Virus record (IMG/VR): IMGVR_UViG_3300025018_000257 | Coordinates: 1-41,615 of that record | Origin: a virus | Taxonomy: Duplodnaviria; Caudoviricetes | DNA: 41,615 bases | Reading direction: 5' to 3' (one strand) | Shown here: one piece after another, positions 23,663 through 28,780 of the stretch | Layout: every line of letters begins with the position of its first letter | Position numbering within the stretch: the stretch's first letter is position 1 | Notes under the pieces: model-generated | The model's database searches: none | Told to the model about the DNA's origin: nothing | Seen by the model: the letters and a program-made list of their open reading frames with translations, nothing else | Translations under genes and position numbers: made by a program

Positions 23663-26600
23663 GTGCCGCAGAACCAGGACATTTACGAGGAAGGCTACCG
23701 GCCGCTGCTCGAGCGTGGCGAGATTGCGCCGCAGAGCCTGGGCGACGTGTTCGAGGCCAACCGGACCATCGCGCGCGCCGACAACAGCAATTACCTGGAT
23801 CTGATCTACGATGAGGAATTGCGGCCGGTGCTGGAGGCAGTCAACGACGTGCGCCGGGCGCAGGGGCTGACCACGATCCTGCCCCCCAGCATGGGCTATC
23901 TGCCCGGCGGAACACTGGCGGATCTGCAGCAGGTAACCAGCGCGCAGGCTGCCCGCGCCGGCATGACGCGCGGCGATCGCCGCGCGGCAGGGCAGGCGAT
24001 CCTAGACGAAGTGGCGCGGATCCAGCGCAGCGATCCGCAGTTCCTTGCCGGTACCGCGCTGCAGCTCGACGAGTACCTGGCGCCGCGATTAGAGCGCGAG
24101 CAGGCGACGCGCGCTGAGGCGTTCGGGGTAGCTGCTGGTGCCCGCGGCGTAATTGGTACCGCAGTGGGCTTTGGTGGCGGCATGATCGCTGCGCTCGAGG
24201 ATCCGGTGGTGCAGGCAACACTGCCGTTCGGCGGGGCCGGCCGCAGCGCGGCAATGCGGATCCTGACCGAAGGCGGGGTGCAGTCCTTCCTCGAGCTGAC
24301 TTTGCAGGGCAACGTGCGCGAGAACCGTGCAGCCCTGGGCGAGCAGCTGACCGGCGGGGAAATGGCGGTGAACGTCGGGTCGGCGTTCGTGCTGGGGTCA
24401 CTGTTCCAAGGCGCATTCGAGGGCGGCCGCCTAGCCTACGACCGGCTGACGCCGCGCGAGCTGCGCCTAGCGCGCGCGCTCGAGCAGGACGTGAGCATGG
24501 CCCAGATCGACCGCGAGGCACTGCTGCGCGAGGCGCTGCAGGCGTTCGACCCCGAGGAACAGGCGCAGCTTATCCTGGCCACCGGCCGCGAGCTGACACC
24601 GCAGGAATCGGGCGCGCTGCTGCAGTGGCAGCGCCAGGTCGAAATCGACGCCGCCAATCCGTTCGCGCCGATCGGCGAAGGGCGGGCGCAGTTCGAGGAC
24701 CGGCTGACCGCGGCGCTGGATACCCTGCTGCACGGCGTTCCCGACGACGTACCTGCCCCTCTGCGCGCGGCGCCTGGTCCGGCGCCGAGGGTCGATCCGC
24801 CGGCGGCACCGGCGCGGCCAGCAGTAGCTGGTGCGGCCGGGCCCTTCGACATGGCGAGCTACCTTGCCCGCAACCGCACGGCGGAGAGCGGCGGCAACGA
24901 CACGGCCGCGGCCGAGTCCTCGAGCGCCTACGGCCGTTACCAGTTCCTGACTGACACCTGGATCGAGTTCTACCGCCGCACCTTCGGCGACACCGGCGAA
25001 AGTCGCGCGCAGATCCTCCGTAAGCGCGCCGATGGCGCGGTACAGGACCGGGTAATGGCGACCTTCACCCAGGCAAACCTGCAGTCGATCGAGGGTGCTG
25101 GCTTTGCGGCGACGCAGGGCAACGCCTACCTGGCGCATTTCCTCGGCGCCGGCGACGCGCTGCGGGTACTGCGCGCGGATCCCGACGCGCCGATCGGCGA
25201 GGTTGTCACGGCCGCTTCGATCCGCGCCAACCCGGCGGTGTTCCGCGATATCGAAACCGCCAGCGAGCTGATTGCCTGGGCGCATCGCAAGATGGGCGGC
25301 GAGGCGGCCAGCGTGGGCCGCGGCGGCCGGGTGAGCGGCGAGGGCGGGGTCAGCCGGGGCGCGGTGCTGCGCGAGGAAGCGGCGCAGCTGCGGCGCGAGG
25401 CGGCCATGATCGACGATCTCGGGCCGGTGGCGTTCGAGCGGTTCGACCCGGCCGATATCGAGGTCGACGCGGGGCTGATGCAGTTCAAGGCTGGCGGCGA
25501 CGAGTTCGGGGTGACCGACCGGCTGCAGGGAGTATCGCGCTGGAACCCGATGCTGGCCGGGCGGGTGATCGTGTGGGAAGCCGAGGACGGCCGCCGGCTG
25601 ATCGCCGACGGGCACCAGCGGCTCGGACTGGCGCGGCGGATCGCGGCGCAGAACGACGGGCAGGAAGTGCTGCTCGACGCGCTGGTGCTGCGCGAGCGCG
25701 ACGGATGGGACGCCGAGACGGTGCGTACCTGGGCGGCGCTCAAGAACATTGCCGAGGGCAGCGGCTCGACGATCGACGCGGCCAAGGTGCTGCAGGGAAT
25801 CGCGCGCGAGGAATGGGCCAAGTACCTGCCGCCGCGATCGGCGCTGGTGCGCGATGCCGAGGCGCTGGTGCGCCTGGGCGACGATGCGTTCGGCATGGTG
25901 GTCAACGAGCTGGTCGATCCGGCGCATGCCGCGGTGGTGGGCCGCCTGGCCAGCGACCCCGGCGAGCAGAAGGCGCTGATGGATCTGCTGCTGCGGCTGT
26001 CGCCGCGCACGATCGGCGAAGCCGAGGGCGTGGTGCGGCAGGGCATGGCGGCGGGCTTCGCGCGCGAGACGCAGGAGGACATGTTCGGCGCGCTCGATTC
26101 GACGACGAGCCTGTTCGTCGAGCGCGCGCGCGTGCTCGACCGGGGGCTTGCGGAATTGCGCAAGATGCGGCAGGTGTTCGGCAGCGCCGCGCGCAACGCC
26201 GACACGCTCGAAAGCGCCGGCAACCGCATCGACCGCGAGCGCAGCGCGCAGGAGATCGAGGACAATGCCCGCGCGCTCGAGCTGGTACGGCGAAGCGCCT
26301 GGAGCGCGGGCCCGGTAAAGGATGCGATCGACGCAGGCGCAAGGAGGCTGGCAGATGGCGAACGGATCGGAGAAGTCGTCAAGGAATTCGTCGCCGCCGT
26401 CAGGCAGCTCGACCTCGACGATCTCGCCCGCCTTGCAGGATCCGGCGAAGGTGCGGCGCGGGGTGGCCTCGCTGATGGAGCTGGACGCGCAGGCGGGGCT
26501 GCAGAAGCGGATGCGCAGTTATTCGCGCGCGATGGGGATCCGGCAGACCAGGCAGAGCTGACGCCGGAGGGCGACCGGGTCGACCCGGTCGACGGGGCCT

Positions 26601-27751
26601 GGCCGAGCCGCGACGAGCTGGAGGCCGCAGGGCAGGATGCGTTCGGCTTCGGCGACGATCCGCTCGACGGCTTTGCCGAGCCTGATGCGCCGGCGACACA
26701 GGCCCAGGCAGAAAGCATCGCCCATGACGTGCGCCAGCAGCTGGCACTTGACAGCGAGGATATCGGCACCACATTGGCGGCACGGATCGACGAGGATTTC
26801 GACGAATACCGCAATCTCTACGACCAGATCGACGACGCCGATACCGGCCTGACGACCGAGGGCGGTCGCGTCCTCAACACCGACCTGGCACGCGAGTTGT
26901 CGCCCGAGTACCGGGCGGATCGTTCGCGTTCGCAGGAGGTGCACGAAGCGGCGAGCGCCTTCGTCAAGCGGCTCTATGCAGCGCGGCTCGCCGAGGAGCC
27001 GCCGCCGGGCCGCGACCGCGAAGTGCTGTTCACCGCTGGCGGGACCGGCGCGGGCAAGTCGACCGGGCTCAAGGTGCTCGGCGGCGAGAACGCGGGTATC
27101 ATCTACGATACCAACATGAACACGCTGGCCAGCGCGGTGACCAAGATCGAGCAGGCGCTCGACGCCGGGTGGGACGTGGATATCGTCTATACCTACCGCG
27201 AGCCGATCGAGGCGCTGGTGAACGGCGCCTTGCCGCGGGCCGAGCGGATGGGGCGCACGGTGCCGGCCGCGGTGCACGTGGAAACCCATGTCGGCGCGCG
27301 CGCGGTGATCGGCCAGCTGGCCGAACGCTATGCCGGCAACGAGCGGGTGCGGATCCGCGCGATCGACAACAGCCGCGGTCGCGGCAATGCGCGCGAAGTG
27401 GCGCTTGCGGATCTGCCCGAAGTGAAGGAAGAAGGGCTTTATGAGCAATCAGTCAGGGAAATCGTCGCAGCCCATGAGCGCGGAGCAATTACTGCGCGCA
27501 CGCTGGCAGGATCTGTCCCCGGCGCAGCAGGCCGAGCGGGCCCGGCTGCGCGAGCAGCGGTCGGCCGAGCGGATGCAGCGGGTGGTGGACAGTCTCAACC
27601 AGCACACGGCGACCAGGCACTAGCCGCCGCGCTCGAGGCCGAGCGCACCAGCCTGTTCACGATCGACGGCGAGGAGCGGCAGCTGGGCGACATGCTCGAC
27701 CAGCACGATACCGCGATGAAGGCGATCGAGGCGGCACGGCGGTGCCTGTAG
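23663..27751 (+). CDS. Polyvalent internal virion protein: lysozyme/transglycosylase-like + ParB-like + zeta-toxin-like kinase domains
   Basis: ESGGN...AYGRYQF...YLAHFLG (~24850-25290); IVWE...LIADGHQR (~25570-25620); VLNTD, TAGGTGAGKST, IYDTN, RAERMGRTVP, IDNS (~26870-27370). Confidence 0.85.
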   Translation: MPQNQDIYEEGYRPLLERGEIAPQSLGDVFEANRTIARADNSNYLDLIYDEELRPVLEAVNDVRRAQGLTTILPPSMGYLPGGTLADLQQVTSAQAARAGMTRGDRRAAGQAILDEVARIQRSDPQFLAGTALQLDEYLAPRLEREQATRAEAFGVAAGARGVIGTAVGFGGGMIAALEDPVVQATLPFGGAGRSAAMRILTEGGVQSFLELTLQGNVRENRAALGEQLTGGEMAVNVGSAFVLGSLFQGAFEGGRLAYDRLTPRELRLARALEQDVSMAQIDREALLREALQAFDPEEQAQLILATGRELTPQESGALLQWQRQVEIDAANPFAPIGEGRAQFEDRLTAALDTLLHGVPDDVPAPLRAAPGPAPRVDPPAAPARPAVAGAAGPFDMASYLARNRTAESGGNDTAAAESSSAYGRYQFLTDTWIEFYRRTFGDTGESRAQILRKRADGAVQDRVMATFTQANLQSIEGAGFAATQGNAYLAHFLGAGDALRVLRADPDAPIGEVVTAASIRANPAVFRDIETASELIAWAHRKMGGEAASVGRGGRVSGEGGVSRGAVLREEAAQLRREAAMIDDLGPVAFERFDPADIEVDAGLMQFKAGGDEFGVTDRLQGVSRWNPMLAGRVIVWEAEDGRRLIADGHQRLGLARRIAAQNDGQEVLLDALVLRERDGWDAETVRTWAALKNIAEGSGSTIDAAKVLQGIAREEWAKYLPPRSALVRDAEALVRLGDDAFGMVVNELVDPAHAAVVGRLASDPGEQKALMDLLLRLSPRTIGEAEGVVRQGMAAGFARETQEDMFGALDSTTSLFVERARVLDRGLAELRKMRQVFGSAARNADTLESAGNRIDRERSAQEIEDNARALELVRRSAWSAGPVKDAIDAGARRLADGERIGEVVKEFVAAVRQLDLDDLARLAGSGEGAARGGLADGAGRAGGAAEADAQLFARDGDPADQAELTPEGDRVDPVDGAWPSRDELEAAGQDAFGFGDDPLDGFAEPDAPATQAQAESIAHDVRQQLALDSEDIGTTLAARIDEDFDEYRNLYDQIDDADTGLTTEGGRVLNTDLARELSPEYRADRSRSQEVHEAASAFVKRLYAARLAEEPPPGRDREVLFTAGGTGAGKSTGLKVLGGENAGIIYDTNMNTLASAVTKIEQALDAGWDVDIVYTYREPIEALVNGALPRAERMGRTVPAAVHVETHVGARAVIGQLAERYAGNERVRIRAIDNSRGRGNAREVALADLPEVKEEGLYEQSVREIVAAHERGAITARTLAGSVPGAAGRAGPAARAAVGRADAAGGGQSQPAHGDQALAAALEAERTSLFTIDGEERQLGDMLDQHDTAMKAIEAARRCL
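26355..26561 (+). CDS. Nested +1-frame small protein (68 aa) after the ParB-like module; putative immunity/inhibitor
   Basis: AGGAGG at 26342-26347, 7 nt before ATG, formed by rare AGG-AGG codons of the host gene; G/C-ending codon bias shifts to the +1 frame. Confidence 0.65.
   Translation: MANGSEKSSRNSSPPSGSSTSTISPALQDPAKVRRGVASLMELDAQAGLQKRMRSYSRAMGIRQTRQS
27441..27623 (+). CDS. Nested +1-frame small protein (60 aa) after the zeta-like domain; putative antitoxin
   Basis: AAGGAAGAAGGG before ATG; host frame switches to A/T-ending codons while the +1 frame reads CTG/GAG/CAG/CGG; charged helical product. Confidence 0.65.
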   Translation: MSNQSGKSSQPMSAEQLLRARWQDLSPAQQAERARLREQRSAERMQRVVDSLNQHTATRH

Positions 27752-27778: not shown

Positions 27779-27808
27779 GGTTTGGATGAAGCCCGCGCGC
27801 GGGTGATA
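27779..27808 (+). promoter_or_regulatory. Putative late promoter, copy 4
   Basis: 12-mer at 27779-27790, TA at 27807. Confidence 0.75.
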
Positions 27809-27845
27809 GGCAGCGGGCTTCCCAGGACGCCCGAGGATCCAGACC

Positions 27846-28109
27846 ATGGCCGAGAATTTCCCCCCGCAGCAGAACACGGTTTCGTCGCCGGCGCGGCAGA
27901 TGTTCGCGCTCACCCCGCACGATACCAATCCGGTCGATCCGCTGCCCAAGGCGCTGCGCTTCGACGCGGCCGGCACGGTGGTGCTGCGCGCGGTCGACAG
28001 CGATGCCGACGTGACGCTCGAGGTGGCCGCCGGCGAAGTGCTCGACGTGCGCGCGCTCTACGTGCGCGACACCGGCACCGACGCGATCACCATCCACGGC
28101 CTGGCTTAA
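27846..28109 (+). CDS. Head spike base protein (RcGTA Rcc01079-like)
   Basis: SPA...FALTPHD...KALRF...G.V...GEVL.VRALYVRDTGT. Confidence 0.75.
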   Translation: MAENFPPQQNTVSSPARQMFALTPHDTNPVDPLPKALRFDAAGTVVLRAVDSDADVTLEVAAGEVLDVRALYVRDTGTDAITIHGLA

Positions 28110-28780
28110 TGCCTGGCTTCGGCTTCGGTGCGGTGCGTGGCCGTGCGCGGCGACGGGGCAGCGGGCTGACGGCGCAAGGCCTGCTGATCGCCAGCATGAA
28201 CGCCGCTGGCGGGCAATCGGCGCTCCACGATTACAGACTGGCGACCGTAAGCGGCGTGCCGGAGTTCCTGTCCGCAGATCTGACCGCCAACGGCAACGAC
28301 CACTATGCCACGGCAGCGGGTACTGTTCCGACTGTTGGCGCTGGCGGCGCAACCTTCGACGCCAACGACAGCGCCCGGCAGGCAATTAGCGGTGGGACAT
28401 TCACCTGCGTTATCAGCTTCACCCCCGGTGCGCTGGGCACCGCTGGCCGGTTTTTCTCCGACCAAGGCGGCAGCACTGCGGTGATCTATAGTAGCTCGAA
28501 TACCTCAGTGTTGACTGCGCCGGTCTATGTTTATGAGAACGGCGTGGGCGGTATCGTTGCCACTCGCAAAGACCTTTACGACGCAATGGTCGCTGCATCG
28601 GGCGAGGTGGTTATCATGGCGACAGGGCTGGACTTCACCGCCGACACCGAACTGCTGGTCGGCCACACCACGGCATCCGGTCCTGGCGTCTATCGCAAGG
28701 CGGCGATCATCGACGAAGTGACGCACGCGGCCACGCTGGCGGCTGATCGGGCGTTGGCGCTTGAGGCGCTGGCGGCGTGA
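28109..28780 (+). CDS. Putative head spike/fibre protein
   Basis: TAATG-coupled to the spike base; MPGFGFG N-terminus; beta-rich; more A/T-ending codons than neighbours. Confidence 0.6.
   Translation: MPGFGFGAVRGRARRRGSGLTAQGLLIASMNAAGGQSALHDYRLATVSGVPEFLSADLTANGNDHYATAAGTVPTVGAGGATFDANDSARQAISGGTFTCVISFTPGALGTAGRFFSDQGGSTAVIYSSSNTSVLTAPVYVYENGVGGIVATRKDLYDAMVAASGEVVIMATGLDFTADTELLVGHTTASGPGVYRKAAIIDEVTHAATLAADRALALEALAA

Follow-up and report, generated by a model that had tools for sequence, protein, structure and literature searches.

Comparison of sequences confirms that the gene for a giant injected-type protein of a T7-like phage (69% GC) contains two real and conserved small-protein genes, both of which are read in the +1 frame relative to the surrounding gene. 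They lie in the window, by which we mean the whole analysed stretch of 41,615 nucleotides, at the ends of a ParB-like and a zeta-like domain, respectively. We put the probability that the encoded peptides serve as cognate neutralisers (antitoxins or immunity proteins) of the domains preceding them at roughly one in two, a reading derived from sequence. The original prediction had envisaged immunity genes overprinted in the linkers of such a protein, each travelling with its domain. Of this interpretation, the existence of real, domain-specific genes and the zeta cassette are upheld, while the proposed direction of overprinting is probably wrong for the zeta partner.

The main reading frame and its domains

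23663-27751, plus strand: main ORF, GTG start, 1362 amino acids, polyvalent internal-virion-type protein
24860-25438, plus strand: lytic transglycosylase (lysozyme-like) domain, residues 400-592 (phrog_4067, E 7.7e-19)
25382-26419, plus strand: ParB/Noc-fold domain with a DGHQR motif, its C-terminal part helical, residues 574-919 (phrog_10691, E 9.9e-56)
26774-27440, plus strand: zeta-toxin-like kinase domain (Pfam Zeta_toxin, residues 1146-1231, E 6.8e-7), Walker A motif GGTGAGKST at 27038-27064
27653-27748, plus strand: C-terminal tail (LF.IDGE...AAR.CL) common to the window and the relatives L001 and L002, from a protein alignment

The main ORF is preceded by genes for the terminase, portal, protease, major head protein and two tail-tube proteins, and is followed by the gene for an 829-amino-acid virion structural protein. 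As had been read from the sequence, it unites a transglycosylase, a ParB/Noc-fold domain and a zeta-toxin-like kinase in one polypeptide encoded among T7-like internal-virion genes. It thus possesses at least two conflict-type effector domains in a delivery context, the hallmark of a polyvalent protein. Sequence searches of Pfam and the PDB returned no match for the ParB-like domain; its AF2 model (pLDDT 88) was matched by Foldseek to Noc (7nfu, E 7e-6) and ParB (6t1f and 7bnr, E about 1e-4), with a probability of 1.0 and target TM scores of 0.57-0.61. The glycine, histidine and arginine of its DGHQR motif are invariant across 33 sequences and, judged by the model, the phrog_10691 region has the ParB N-terminal fold and the GxxR-type motif of the ParB/Srx superfamily. 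The nearest solved kinase to the zeta-like domain is 6eph, annotated as 'Zeta_1 toxin' (E 1.4e-7), and the glycine and lysine residues of the domain's Walker A motif are invariant in 31 sequences.

The GC content at third codon positions (GC3) of the main frame lies between 0.83 and 0.97 inside the domains. It drops from about 0.9 to about 0.5 where the loss of codon bias had been noted, with values of 0.47-0.70 at 26273-26510 after the ParB-like domain and of 0.47-0.67 at 27353-27590 after the zeta-like domain, and at both places a +1 ORF begins. Over the same two stretches the GC content at first codon positions of the main frame climbs to 0.93-0.97; in the +1 frame these positions are the third. 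The odd composition of these linkers (rich in G, A, R, P and Q, with codons ending in A or T) is probably that of a main frame crossing a small gene whose own frame dictates the codons. The G- and R-rich linker downstream of the lysozyme domain retains a GC3 of 0.90-0.97, and no +1 ORF was found there, the +1 frame being closed in the window and in two relatives; hence, the contrast drawn between this linker and the other two holds.

The two nested genes in the window and its relatives

26322-26561, plus strand: nested +1 gene 1 (from the ORF list and sequence), 79 amino acids from the ATG at 26322 or 68 from the ATG at 26355
26342-26347, plus strand: AGGAGG, 7 nt 5' of the ATG at 26355, read from the sequence
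27424-27436, plus strand: purine-rich, Shine-Dalgarno (SD)-like stretch GAAGGAAGAAGGG 5' of the ATG at 27441, read from the sequence
27441-27623, plus strand: nested +1 gene 2 (from the ORF list and sequence), 60 amino acids (P0003), with a disordered N-terminus, two helices and a C-terminal VVDSLNQ
26771-27652, plus strand: inserted cassette, residues 1037-1330, comprising the zeta-like domain and the whole of nested gene 2; L001 and L002 lack it (protein alignment and border coordinates)

Both nested ORFs are preceded by the RBS-like elements that had been proposed for them. Furthermore, chance falls far short of explaining the switch in codon bias, the start signals, the phase in which sites vary or the homology of the peptides. 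Each ORF is complete, lies on the same strand as the main ORF in another frame and has its own start signals, and among the relatives the nested frame is under purifying selection; these are the properties expected of an embedded overlapping gene. It is the +1 frame that selection maintains in this segment in the relatives, and the main frame there is a loosely constrained hydrophilic linker.

For nested gene 1, +1-frame purifying selection can be seen in the window itself, where it is the only ORF for which this is so (in comparisons with L001, L044 and L045). Between the window and L001 there is almost no synonymous change over residues 907-955; the first 25 codons of the ORF show the ordinary main-frame pattern (variability at third codon positions, p3, of.40), and its N-terminus and true start are therefore unsure. 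When the window, L044 and L045 are left out of the profile, nested gene 1 comes first among 650 ORF segments of the window (E 5e-4). The expectation that domain and +1 ORF would occur together in homologues was borne out for the ParB type in 59 of 62 evaluable relatives (GC.32-.69), in which the +1 frame is open over 47-81 codons. The three relatives lacking a +1 ORF include a Prochlorococcus phage, the only cultured low-GC relative examined. In low-GC lineages this openness differs from that of synonymous shuffles with P values of.001-.05. The suppression of synonymous variation that had been anticipated is evident over nine clusters, in which main-frame p3 variability is.49 in the domain and drops to.27 over the distal part of the overlap (Fisher 1.8e-17), with p1 variability increasing from.18 to.30 (P 1e-7). 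The peptides have the common core LS.[LM]S[DE]E[QE][FL]..A...[LM]A..DA.

With respect to nested gene 2, 34 viral relatives of the zeta type were found, of which 33 could be evaluated (GC 0.36-0.70). All 33, like the window, possess a +1 ORF of 48-91 codons at the matching place, starting between -13 and +41 nt from the domain end with ATG (n=30) or GTG (n=4). It should be noted that an open +1 frame carries no weight by itself for this type, because +1 stops require L, V, I or M codons in the main frame, and the frame stays open after synonymous shuffling (P 0.27-1.0 in all 34 sequences). An ATG-started +1 ORF is present in 26 of 29 non-redundant loci, as against 11.0 expected from synonymous shuffles, and an SD-like match, of the kind foreseen as a conserved ribosome-binding element, in 20 of 29 as against 4.2; none of 200,000 simulations equalled either count. 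These signals are retained beyond what the main frame requires. Over 27 loci, the main-frame GC3 runs from.69 to.46 and then to.65 (Wilcoxon 8e-7). In two clusters, whose member loci, like those of the ParB-type clusters, are not independent of each other, the variation switches phase to the +1 frame. Given as variable sites at main-frame codon positions p1/p2/p3, cluster A changes from.17/.11/.58 in the domain to.32/.29/.18 in the distal overlap and to.16/.10/.40 past the +1 stop, and cluster B from.08/.07/.55 in the domain to.53/.18/.13 in the distal overlap.

In the window, P0003 is modelled by AF2 (pLDDT 82) with helices at residues 14-23 and 27-59. It ranks first among the 650 ORF segments with a held-out profile, but with a modest E value of 0.033. 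The nearest relative of the window's zeta ORF, from a Porphyrobacter MAG (L109), encodes a 59-amino-acid counterpart with 20 identical residues; it differs by 0.4-0.7 at all codon positions and is too diverged for a phase test. The suggestion that domain and nested gene can be inserted mid-gene as a cassette fits the zeta region, which forms a discrete insertion relative to L001.

The two peptide families are unrelated to each other (hhalign probability 0.1), and each is tied to a single type of domain in a wide variety of host proteins. Neither has a match in Pfam, NCBIfam or the PDB, and the families are unnamed. Profile A5, built from the full-length zeta-partner peptide, matched 82 cluster representatives among 1.84 billion proteins at E<=1e-3 (best 6e-16), and the 17 of these that were retrieved range from 53 to 218 amino acids. 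Among 13 cluster members listed, two are called 'hypothetical protein' and none bears a functional name. The ParB-partner profile found four called proteins among 5.8 billion (E 4e-11 to 5e-9). The forecast that standard gene callers would pass over such genes is mostly correct.

A free two-gene module in bacteria

The zeta partner also exists outside phage genes. In 47 loci from bacterial genomes, 27 gave any match to the distal-peptide profile (E<1), and in 26 of these the best one lies on the plus strand in frame +1, 53-194 nt past the domain end. Among stand-alone kinase genes, 20 of 22 have a +1 ORF with an NL[KRN].NV-type motif that extends beyond the kinase stop; the zeta partner motif is absent from L121 and L142. 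The non-overlapped part of the small gene varies by.33/.21/.79 in its own frame, and past its stop the variation is about.87 at all positions. In three loci (L018, L022, L026) the distal part of the peptide is located past the kinase stop, and a distal-peptide profile made without them recovers them with E values of 7e-4 and 5e-3 among 5405 ORF segments, the next false match appearing only at E 3.9. The small ORFs of 15 stand-alone modules resemble each other in 25 of 105 pairs at E<1e-4; their flanking ORFs do so in none, and this includes the absence of a conserved upstream ORF. The small gene is the only conserved partner of stand-alone zeta-like kinases in bacterial chromosomes, and in this free form the overlap does not reach its conserved helix. 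The free two-gene form suggests read-through of an older small gene and not a small gene born in a linker, so that 'overprinted' probably describes the wrong direction for the zeta partner, with the main frame reading through a pre-existing gene.

Possible function and relation to known systems

If the peptides are neutralisers, ribosomes would initiate at the internal SD/ATG signals and produce a largely helical peptide of 60-80 amino acids, which would bind and silence the enzyme domain within the producing cell. The large protein would then be packaged and injected without the peptide, and the effector would become active in the next host. A point against such an immunity role is that a lytic phage near host lysis may have no need for protection. 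A less probable but serious alternative is that the nested genes are real and translated and that their products do not inhibit the adjoining domain, but act as packaging or folding chaperones, early anti-defence peptides or regulators of translation. All of the coding evidence applies equally to it, and the peptides are unlike known antitoxins. Moreover, in other proteins the zeta-partner module is found as two to four tandem copies, or as a fusion with an HD_4 domain or with transmembrane segments, which fits a more general binding module. However, the bond of each peptide family to a single domain type in many host proteins argues against this alternative, as does the retention of the zeta partner beside stand-alone bacterial kinases, a setting that involves no virion assembly and in which no further neighbour is conserved.

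Programmed +1 ribosomal frameshifting, by which the +1 sequences would be alternative C-termini of truncated products ending after each domain, is in our view unlikely. The +1 ORFs do start within the final helices of each domain, some loci have a +1 frame that stays open a long way upstream, and several ParB-type loci have no ATG near the conserved core. Yet the ATG and SD-like signals are strongly enriched, 15 of 29 loci have a +1 stop at most 15 codons 5' of the start (5 codons 5' in the window), and gene callers report the peptides as separate proteins of 50-100 amino acids. Slightly more doubtful still is that fusion made the main frame run through the small genes of an ancestral two-gene module and that these genes are now linker only in this phage. 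Such a history accords with the existence of the free form, and the window's zeta cassette has no relative close enough for a selection test; it sits poorly with the intact ATG, SD, stop and full-length ORF of both window genes, with the +1-frame selection on nested copies in other phages and with the near lack of synonymous change in ORF 1. As for an artefact of chance or composition, high-GC genomes are rich in long alternative-frame ORFs (159 of at least 100 amino acids in the window, many of them spurious), hydrophilic linkers cannot give +1 stops, and the +1 frame survives synonymous shuffles. For the two families, this very improbable reading is ruled out by the switch of phase, the start signals, the coding periodicity of the non-overlapped copies and the profile matches among 1.84 billion proteins; +1 ORFs are also present in genomes of GC 0.32-0.47, where their openness is non-random.

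The arrangement resembles the lambda Rz1 gene, which is embedded in Rz in the +1 frame: in both cases, a larger gene encloses a whole small gene that has a start of its own, and in Rz1-in-Rz the phage uses both products. Here, however, each nested gene is found where an enzyme domain of a multi-domain injected protein ends and moves together with that domain as a cassette, the overlapped main frame is a linker and not a functional domain, and the predicted products are soluble-looking helical peptides, in contrast to the lipoproteins of the Rz1 type. With epsilon/zeta, PezAT (reviewed in PMC10532202) and ng_epsilon1/zeta1, the window's module shares a P-loop kinase of the zeta type that is accompanied by a small helical protein, and it too occurs as stand-alone chromosomal two-gene modules. 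In the known epsilon/zeta systems the antitoxin gene comes before the toxin gene, whereas the partner described here, a putative neutraliser, follows the kinase, overlaps the 3' end of its gene in the +1 frame and does not resemble epsilon or PezA in sequence. By sequence, neither peptide resembles epsilon, PezA or any solved chain; profile A5 matched no PDB chain at E<=1, and profile A7 gave chance-level matches only. An identity as an epsilon/PezA-type antitoxin was rejected on these grounds, namely the lack of a family match or PDB chain and a partner gene that is not upstream.

In plant pathogens, the gene for AvrRxo1-ORF2 adjoins that for AvrRxo1-ORF1. AvrRxo1-ORF2 is cited in PMC5087710 as the interactor of AvrRxo1-ORF1. 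The pair resembles the present case in that a zeta-like kinase is delivered into another cell and a small interactor is encoded alongside; AvrRxo1 differs from the main ORF in being a type III effector whose partner is a separate gene. MuF polymorphic toxins, according to Jamet et al. 2017 (PMC5576092), are virion-associated phage toxins with a downstream immunity gene; the candidate protector reported here lies inside the toxin gene and not after it. The main-ORF protein (P0001) is not itself a MuF polymorphic toxin, as Pfam detects Zeta_toxin only and no N-terminal MuF domain. Polyvalent proteins are likewise multi-domain injected proteins of phages and conjugative elements, and the sections of Iyer et al. 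2017 (PMC5512222) drawn on here report that late phage genes can join a DdrB-like ParB domain to lysozyme and that phages also have fusions of zeta-toxin-like kinases with MuF domains; these sections describe no nested partner genes, and the word 'overlapping' occurs nowhere in the paper.

Inside the gene for a giant injected phage protein, there are hence two small genes, one base out of step with it, that relatives have kept and gene callers have mostly missed, and whose products are likely inhibitors.

Setting and domains of the giant gene

The viral contig is complete (41.6 kb, 69% GC), and its layout is of the T7-like podovirus type: genes for a terminase, a portal-type adaptor, a protease, the major head protein and two tail-tube proteins are followed by ORFs of 196, 738, 1362, 332 and 829 amino acids, the last of which is labelled 'virion structural protein'. 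Judged by this gene order, the 1362-aa ORF (23663-27751, + strand) lies in the position of the genes for internal, ejected virion proteins, and its product is probably one of them. The 332-aa ORF (27782-28780, + strand), located between the giant gene and that for the 829-aa virion protein, has no match in Pfam, PHROG or NCBIfam; it is missing in the relative L001, where the homologue of the 829-aa ORF comes directly after the giant gene.

The original prediction assigned lysozyme-like, ParB-like and zeta-like domains to the 1362-aa protein, and all three calls proved correct when assessed with PHROGs, Pfam and AlphaFold2/Foldseek. PHROGs detects a transglycosylase (residues 400-592, E 8e-19) and phrog_10691 (residues 574-919, E 1e-55), while Pfam detects Zeta_toxin (residues 1146-1231, E 7e-7). 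The nearest solved sequence to the zeta-like kinase is 6eph, 'Zeta_1 toxin' (E 1.4e-7), and its Walker A motif, GGTGAGKST, is kept across 31 relatives. The middle domain finds no sequence match in Pfam or the PDB; its AlphaFold2 model (33 sequences, pLDDT 88) resembles Noc and ParB structures (Foldseek E 7e-6 to 1e-4, probability 1.0). Among phage polyvalent proteins, Iyer et al. (2017, PMC5512222) describe fusions of lysozyme with DdrB-like ParB domains and of MuF domains with zeta-like kinases; these proteins share the architecture of the giant gene product, and are described without nested partners in the sections of that paper covered here.

Within the domains, the main-frame GC3 is 0.83-0.97. 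Two stretches deviate, 26273-26510 and 27353-27590: there, GC3 is lowered to 0.47-0.70, and the main-frame GC1, which is equivalent to GC3 of the +1 frame, climbs to 0.93-0.97. The following ORFs lie there:

26322-26561, + strand: ORF 1, +1 frame, behind the ParB-like domain; inner ATG at 26355 with AGGAGG 7 nt upstream of it
27441-27623, + strand: ORF 2, +1 frame, behind the zeta-like kinase; purine-rich stretch ahead of the start

The takeover of the codon bias by the +1 frame behind these two domains, and the lack of a +1 ORF behind the lysozyme domain, had both been noted from the sequence, and both observations are borne out. The +1 frame after the lysozyme domain is closed in the window and in two relatives, and its G/R-rich linker keeps a GC3 of 0.90-0.97; low GC3 hence does not characterise the linkers of the giant gene as a whole. 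A third nested gene behind the lysozyme domain (25193-25370) was considered and rejected, as the +1 frame is closed, the +2 frame reads as R/G-rich junk, and GC3 is about 0.97. Synonymous change between the window and L001 is low at 25193-25370 and 25805-25900, neither of which has an open alternative frame; a GC3 of about 0.93-0.97 at 25283-25370 may cap synonymous change there. Two additional GC3 dips (0.57-0.73) in the N-terminal half, at 24083-24170 and 24713-24790, fall one over a G/A-rich hydrophobic stretch and the other over a P/A-rich linker, and no +1 ORF was seen at either; a +2-frame ORF is present at 24625-24954.

It should be noted that long spurious ORFs are common at 69% GC; the window contains 159 ORFs of at least 100 aa. 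Furthermore, the +1 frame acquires a stop only where a main-frame codon ends in TA or TG (L, V, I, M), so that a hydrophilic linker is automatically open in the +1 frame. In synonymous shuffles, a null model that fixes a main-frame protein possibly itself shaped by the overlap, the +1 frame stays open in 34/34 zeta-type sequences (P 0.27-1.0), and for this reason we dropped openness as an argument for the zeta-type gene.

The gene behind the zeta-like kinase domain

In viral contigs, 34 relatives of the zeta segment were identified (42-62% identity, GC 0.36-0.70), nearly all embedded in ORFs of 500-2100 aa with varied neighbours. A +1 ORF of 48-91 codons is present in the window and in all 33 evaluable loci, the remaining one being cut by the contig end; its start codon (ATG in 30 cases, GTG in four) is located -13 to +41 nt relative to the end of the domain. 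Of 29 non-redundant loci, an ATG-started +1 ORF is found in 26 and an SD-like match in 20, as compared to 11.0 and 4.2 expected from synonymous shuffles; neither count was attained in any of 200,000 simulations. For all locus counts given here and below, it applies that loci within clusters share common ancestry and are not independent events. A +1 stop precedes the start by at most 15 codons in 15/29 loci. Common to the peptides is the core A-x-x-[FILM]-[VA]-x-[SN]-L-N-[RK], which the main frame reads as G-[QE]-[PS]-[QE]-P, using rare A/T-ending codons.

The phase of variation was assessed on nucleotide alignments built without frame information and is given as the fraction of variable sites at main-frame codon positions 1/2/3. 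In cluster A, the domain shows.17/.11/.58, the distal overlap.32/.29/.18 and the stretch beyond the +1 stop.16/.10/.40; in cluster B, the values are.08/.07/.55 for the domain and.53/.18/.13 for the distal overlap. Variation thus switches phase in the distal overlap. Across 27 loci, the main-frame GC3 goes from.69 to.46 and back to.65 (Wilcoxon 8e-7). The expectation that homologues would retain an open +1 ORF with a ribosome-binding site and suppressed synonymous variation therefore largely holds for the zeta type. In one clade, the zeta-like domain is followed by another type of +1 peptide, MEKYQNQYTV...LLSLPDT..RAALLRAMP (L027, 2051-2239; L030, 3734-3922; L031, 3707-3901), which displays the clearest phase switch (.53/.18/.13) and a weak MgtE_N match (E 0.002, below the cut-off).

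The small gene also occurs outside the overlap. In L018 (GC.47) and L022/L026 (GC.36), it continues beyond the kinase-frame stop, and a distal-peptide profile trained without these loci recovers them among 5405 ORF segments at E 7e-4 and 5e-3, the next false match being at E 3.9. A profile of the full-length peptide (A5) matched 82 of 1.84 billion cluster representatives at E<=1e-3 (best 6e-16); the 17 retrieved are 53-218 aa long, no match to longer proteins was found, and none of the 13 cluster members listed carries a functional name, two being called 'hypothetical protein'. The distal-part profile was also applied to 47 bacterial-genome loci that form an independent set; here, the best match lay on the + strand, in frame +1 and 53-194 nt past the domain end in 26 of the 27 loci with E<1 (E<0.01 in 9/47).

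Twenty of 22 stand-alone zeta-like genes (256-420 aa) from Acidobacteria, Binatia, delta-proteobacteria and a CPR bacterium are accompanied by a +1 ORF with the motif, which extends beyond the kinase stop by 21-53 codons in 19 of them and by nine codons in one. In five related modules, the non-overlapped part of the small gene varies in its own frame (.33/.21/.79) much like the kinase gene (.31/.24/.73), and variability is about.87 at all positions beyond the small-gene stop. Of the small-ORF pairs from 15 diverse modules, 25/105 match at E<1e-4; no flanking ORF is common to these modules (0 pairs at the same threshold, 489 flank segments). Kinase and small gene hence also exist as a free two-gene module, and the stand-alone arrangement is the picture of a mobile one. 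On an Acidobacteriaceae chromosome (L139, 1884-2817), a 267-aa zeta-like gene and a 63-aa small ORF overlap by 62 nt, next to genes for a solute-binding protein and an IS3 transposase; with the IS3-family transposase at its side, this pair resembles a mobile toxin-antitoxin pair.

The zeta-partner module, of the form KP.ES.K.ST ... A..[FIL]V.[SN]LN[RK].V, was also seen in seven proteins (P0004, P0005, P0006, P0008, P0033, P0084, P0052), in some of them in 2-4 tandem copies, behind transmembrane segments in P0006, and joined once to an HD_4 domain (P0052; E 8e-6, just under the Pfam cut-off). For P0005, a tandem-module protein, no genomic context was found in viral contigs.

As to the window's own cassette, a profile built with the window held out ranks ORF 27426-27623 at the top of 650 window ORF segments, albeit only at E 0.033. 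Its closest relative is in a Porphyrobacter MAG (L109; 68-71% kinase identity), which has the same architecture and a 59-aa +1 ORF with 20 identical residues; divergence is strong, and all codon positions are saturated between the two. The 60-aa window peptide, modelled by AlphaFold2 with a disordered N-terminus and helices at residues 14-23 and 27-59 (pLDDT 82), has no tblastn match in phage records and no word-sharing protein. Compared with the relatives L001 and L002, the window carries an insertion at 26771-27652 that comprises the kinase domain and the entire ORF 2 and ends 29 nt beyond the ORF 2 stop. The proposal that each effector domain travels with its nested gene as a cassette insertable mid-gene is thereby upheld in part, namely for the zeta domain and ORF 2.

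The gene behind the ParB-like domain

Phage records supplied the ParB-type loci L040-L042, and 66 loci, one of them the window itself, came from scanning metagenomes; six of 68 were dropped as too short or without alignment, and 62 were evaluated. From the domain end, the +1 frame is open for 47-81 codons in 59/62 loci (GC 0.32-0.69); the exceptions are L098, L104 and the Prochlorococcus phage L042 (25% identity). Openness is informative in the low-GC lineages because of hydrophobic residues in the main frame, and the shuffle P is.001 (L074),.002 (L073),.005 (L071), about.015 (L090 group) and about.03 (L058 group). The peptide core reads LS.[LM]S[DE]E[QE][FL]..A...[LM]A..DA..[ML]. Across nine clusters, third-position variability of the main frame is.49 within the domain, goes down to.27 over the distal overlap (Fisher 1.8e-17) and amounts to.56 further downstream; first-position variability rises from.18 to.30 (1e-7). 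Variation in the L058 group is as low as.12/.07/.12 in the distal overlap, as opposed to.65/.55/.80 immediately after it. Between the window and L001, the strongest synonymous suppression of the whole gene is at residues 907-955, with synonymous differences of 2/20, 0/20, 1/15 and 1/16 identical codons as compared to a typical 30-50%.

With the window, L044 and L045 left out of the profile, ORF 26319-26561 comes out at the top of the 650 window ORF segments (E 5e-4), and four called proteins in 5.8 billion match the family (E 4e-11 to 5e-9), all of them unnamed. The true start of ORF 1 is less certain: in ParB-type loci, the main-frame motif GP[IV]SDAL frequently gives rise to an ATG, which in the window is the one at 26322, the SD sequence is far better at ATG 26355, and the first 25 codons show a main-frame-type variation pattern relative to L001. 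ORF 5297-5503 of L001, a +1 ORF of the same length, was rejected as a counterpart of ORF 1 since its place and sequence are non-homologous. The nested ORF is also present in two cultured or deposited phages, Ruegeria phage 45A6 (L041) and Dunaliella viridis virus SI2 (L040), where the annotation gives the surrounding gene (11.7 kb in 45A6) as one hypothetical protein; both records list only the large CDS over the region examined, just as anticipated for standard gene callers.

Neither peptide family matches Pfam, NCBIfam or PHROGs, nor any solved chain (A5, none at E<=1; A7, the second peptide profile, chance-level only), and a search of the ESM Atlas (best score 0.77) gave no usable lead. Both families are unnamed and absent from standard annotation, and they are unrelated to each other (hhalign probability 0.1). 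The two window peptides start alike with M-x-N-x-S-x-K-S-S (26355-26381 and 27441-27467); kinship on this basis was rejected (BLASTP E 0.31, unrelated profiles). Together, the two families are conserved across phages and bacterial phyla over a GC range of 0.32-0.72.

Origin and putative function of the nested genes

Both stretches of the giant gene are dual-coding: a small +1 gene is conserved and, in relatives, under selection, its start signals are retained, and each small-gene family is tied to one type of enzyme domain. Pure chance as the origin of the two families is excluded. We regard the zeta-type genes as very probably real and the ParB-type genes as nearly as secure. Nested +1 genes are known in phages, as exemplified by Rz1 within Rz of lambda. 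Programmed +1 frameshifting, by which the main-frame ribosome would enter the small frame, is disfavoured by the excess of ATG and SD-like signals, by the +1 stops close upstream of the starts, and by the stand-alone copies of the small gene. That the +1 frames are mere fossils in the window phage is an improbable but tenable reading for the zeta cassette, which has no close relative.

Zeta-type kinases are known to be held in check by small protein antitoxins of the epsilon/PezA family, whose gene lies upstream; the window peptides do not test as members of that family. MuF toxins keep their immunity in a separate downstream gene, and the giant gene product differs from them in having no MuF domain. 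Searches of the full-text literature open without subscription turned up no description of zeta-like or ParB-like domains with nested or overlapping partners. The most far-reaching interpretation, with a probability of about 0.4, is that effector domains of phage polyvalent proteins carry putative neutraliser genes in the +1 frame of the adjoining downstream linker, so that toxin and antidote form one movable, inseparable block. Internal ribosome initiation would yield a helical peptide, which would bind and silence the adjacent domain in the producing cell, and the large protein would then be packaged and injected without it. The zeta peptide would represent a new antitoxin family with free overlapping pairs in Acidobacteria, Proteobacteria and CPR bacteria, and the ParB peptide a new inhibitor of an injected ParB-fold enzyme. 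For the inhibitor role as such, we see roughly even odds. A real gene with another function, such as that of a chaperone, an anti-defence factor or a regulator, is a somewhat weaker possibility; it agrees with the tandem and fused copies of the zeta-partner module and fits poorly with the stand-alone chromosomal pairs.

The free modules point to uptake of a kinase gene and its overlapping partner by the giant gene; subsequent loss of the kinase stop would have left the partner to be read through by the main frame as linker. This read-through would be why the linker is rich in G, A, R, P and Q and in A/T-ending codons, and nested genes would account for the odd composition of 'linkers' in giant phage proteins. 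A main-frame GC3 drop combined with a phase switch of variation provides a practical rule for finding such hidden genes. If the peptides are cognate inhibitors, they would constitute a new antitoxin family for zeta-like kinases and the first inhibitor for injected ParB-fold domains, encoded in an arrangement in which toxin and antidote are genetically inseparable; this would account for the survival of the producer when toxic domains are shuffled into virion proteins.
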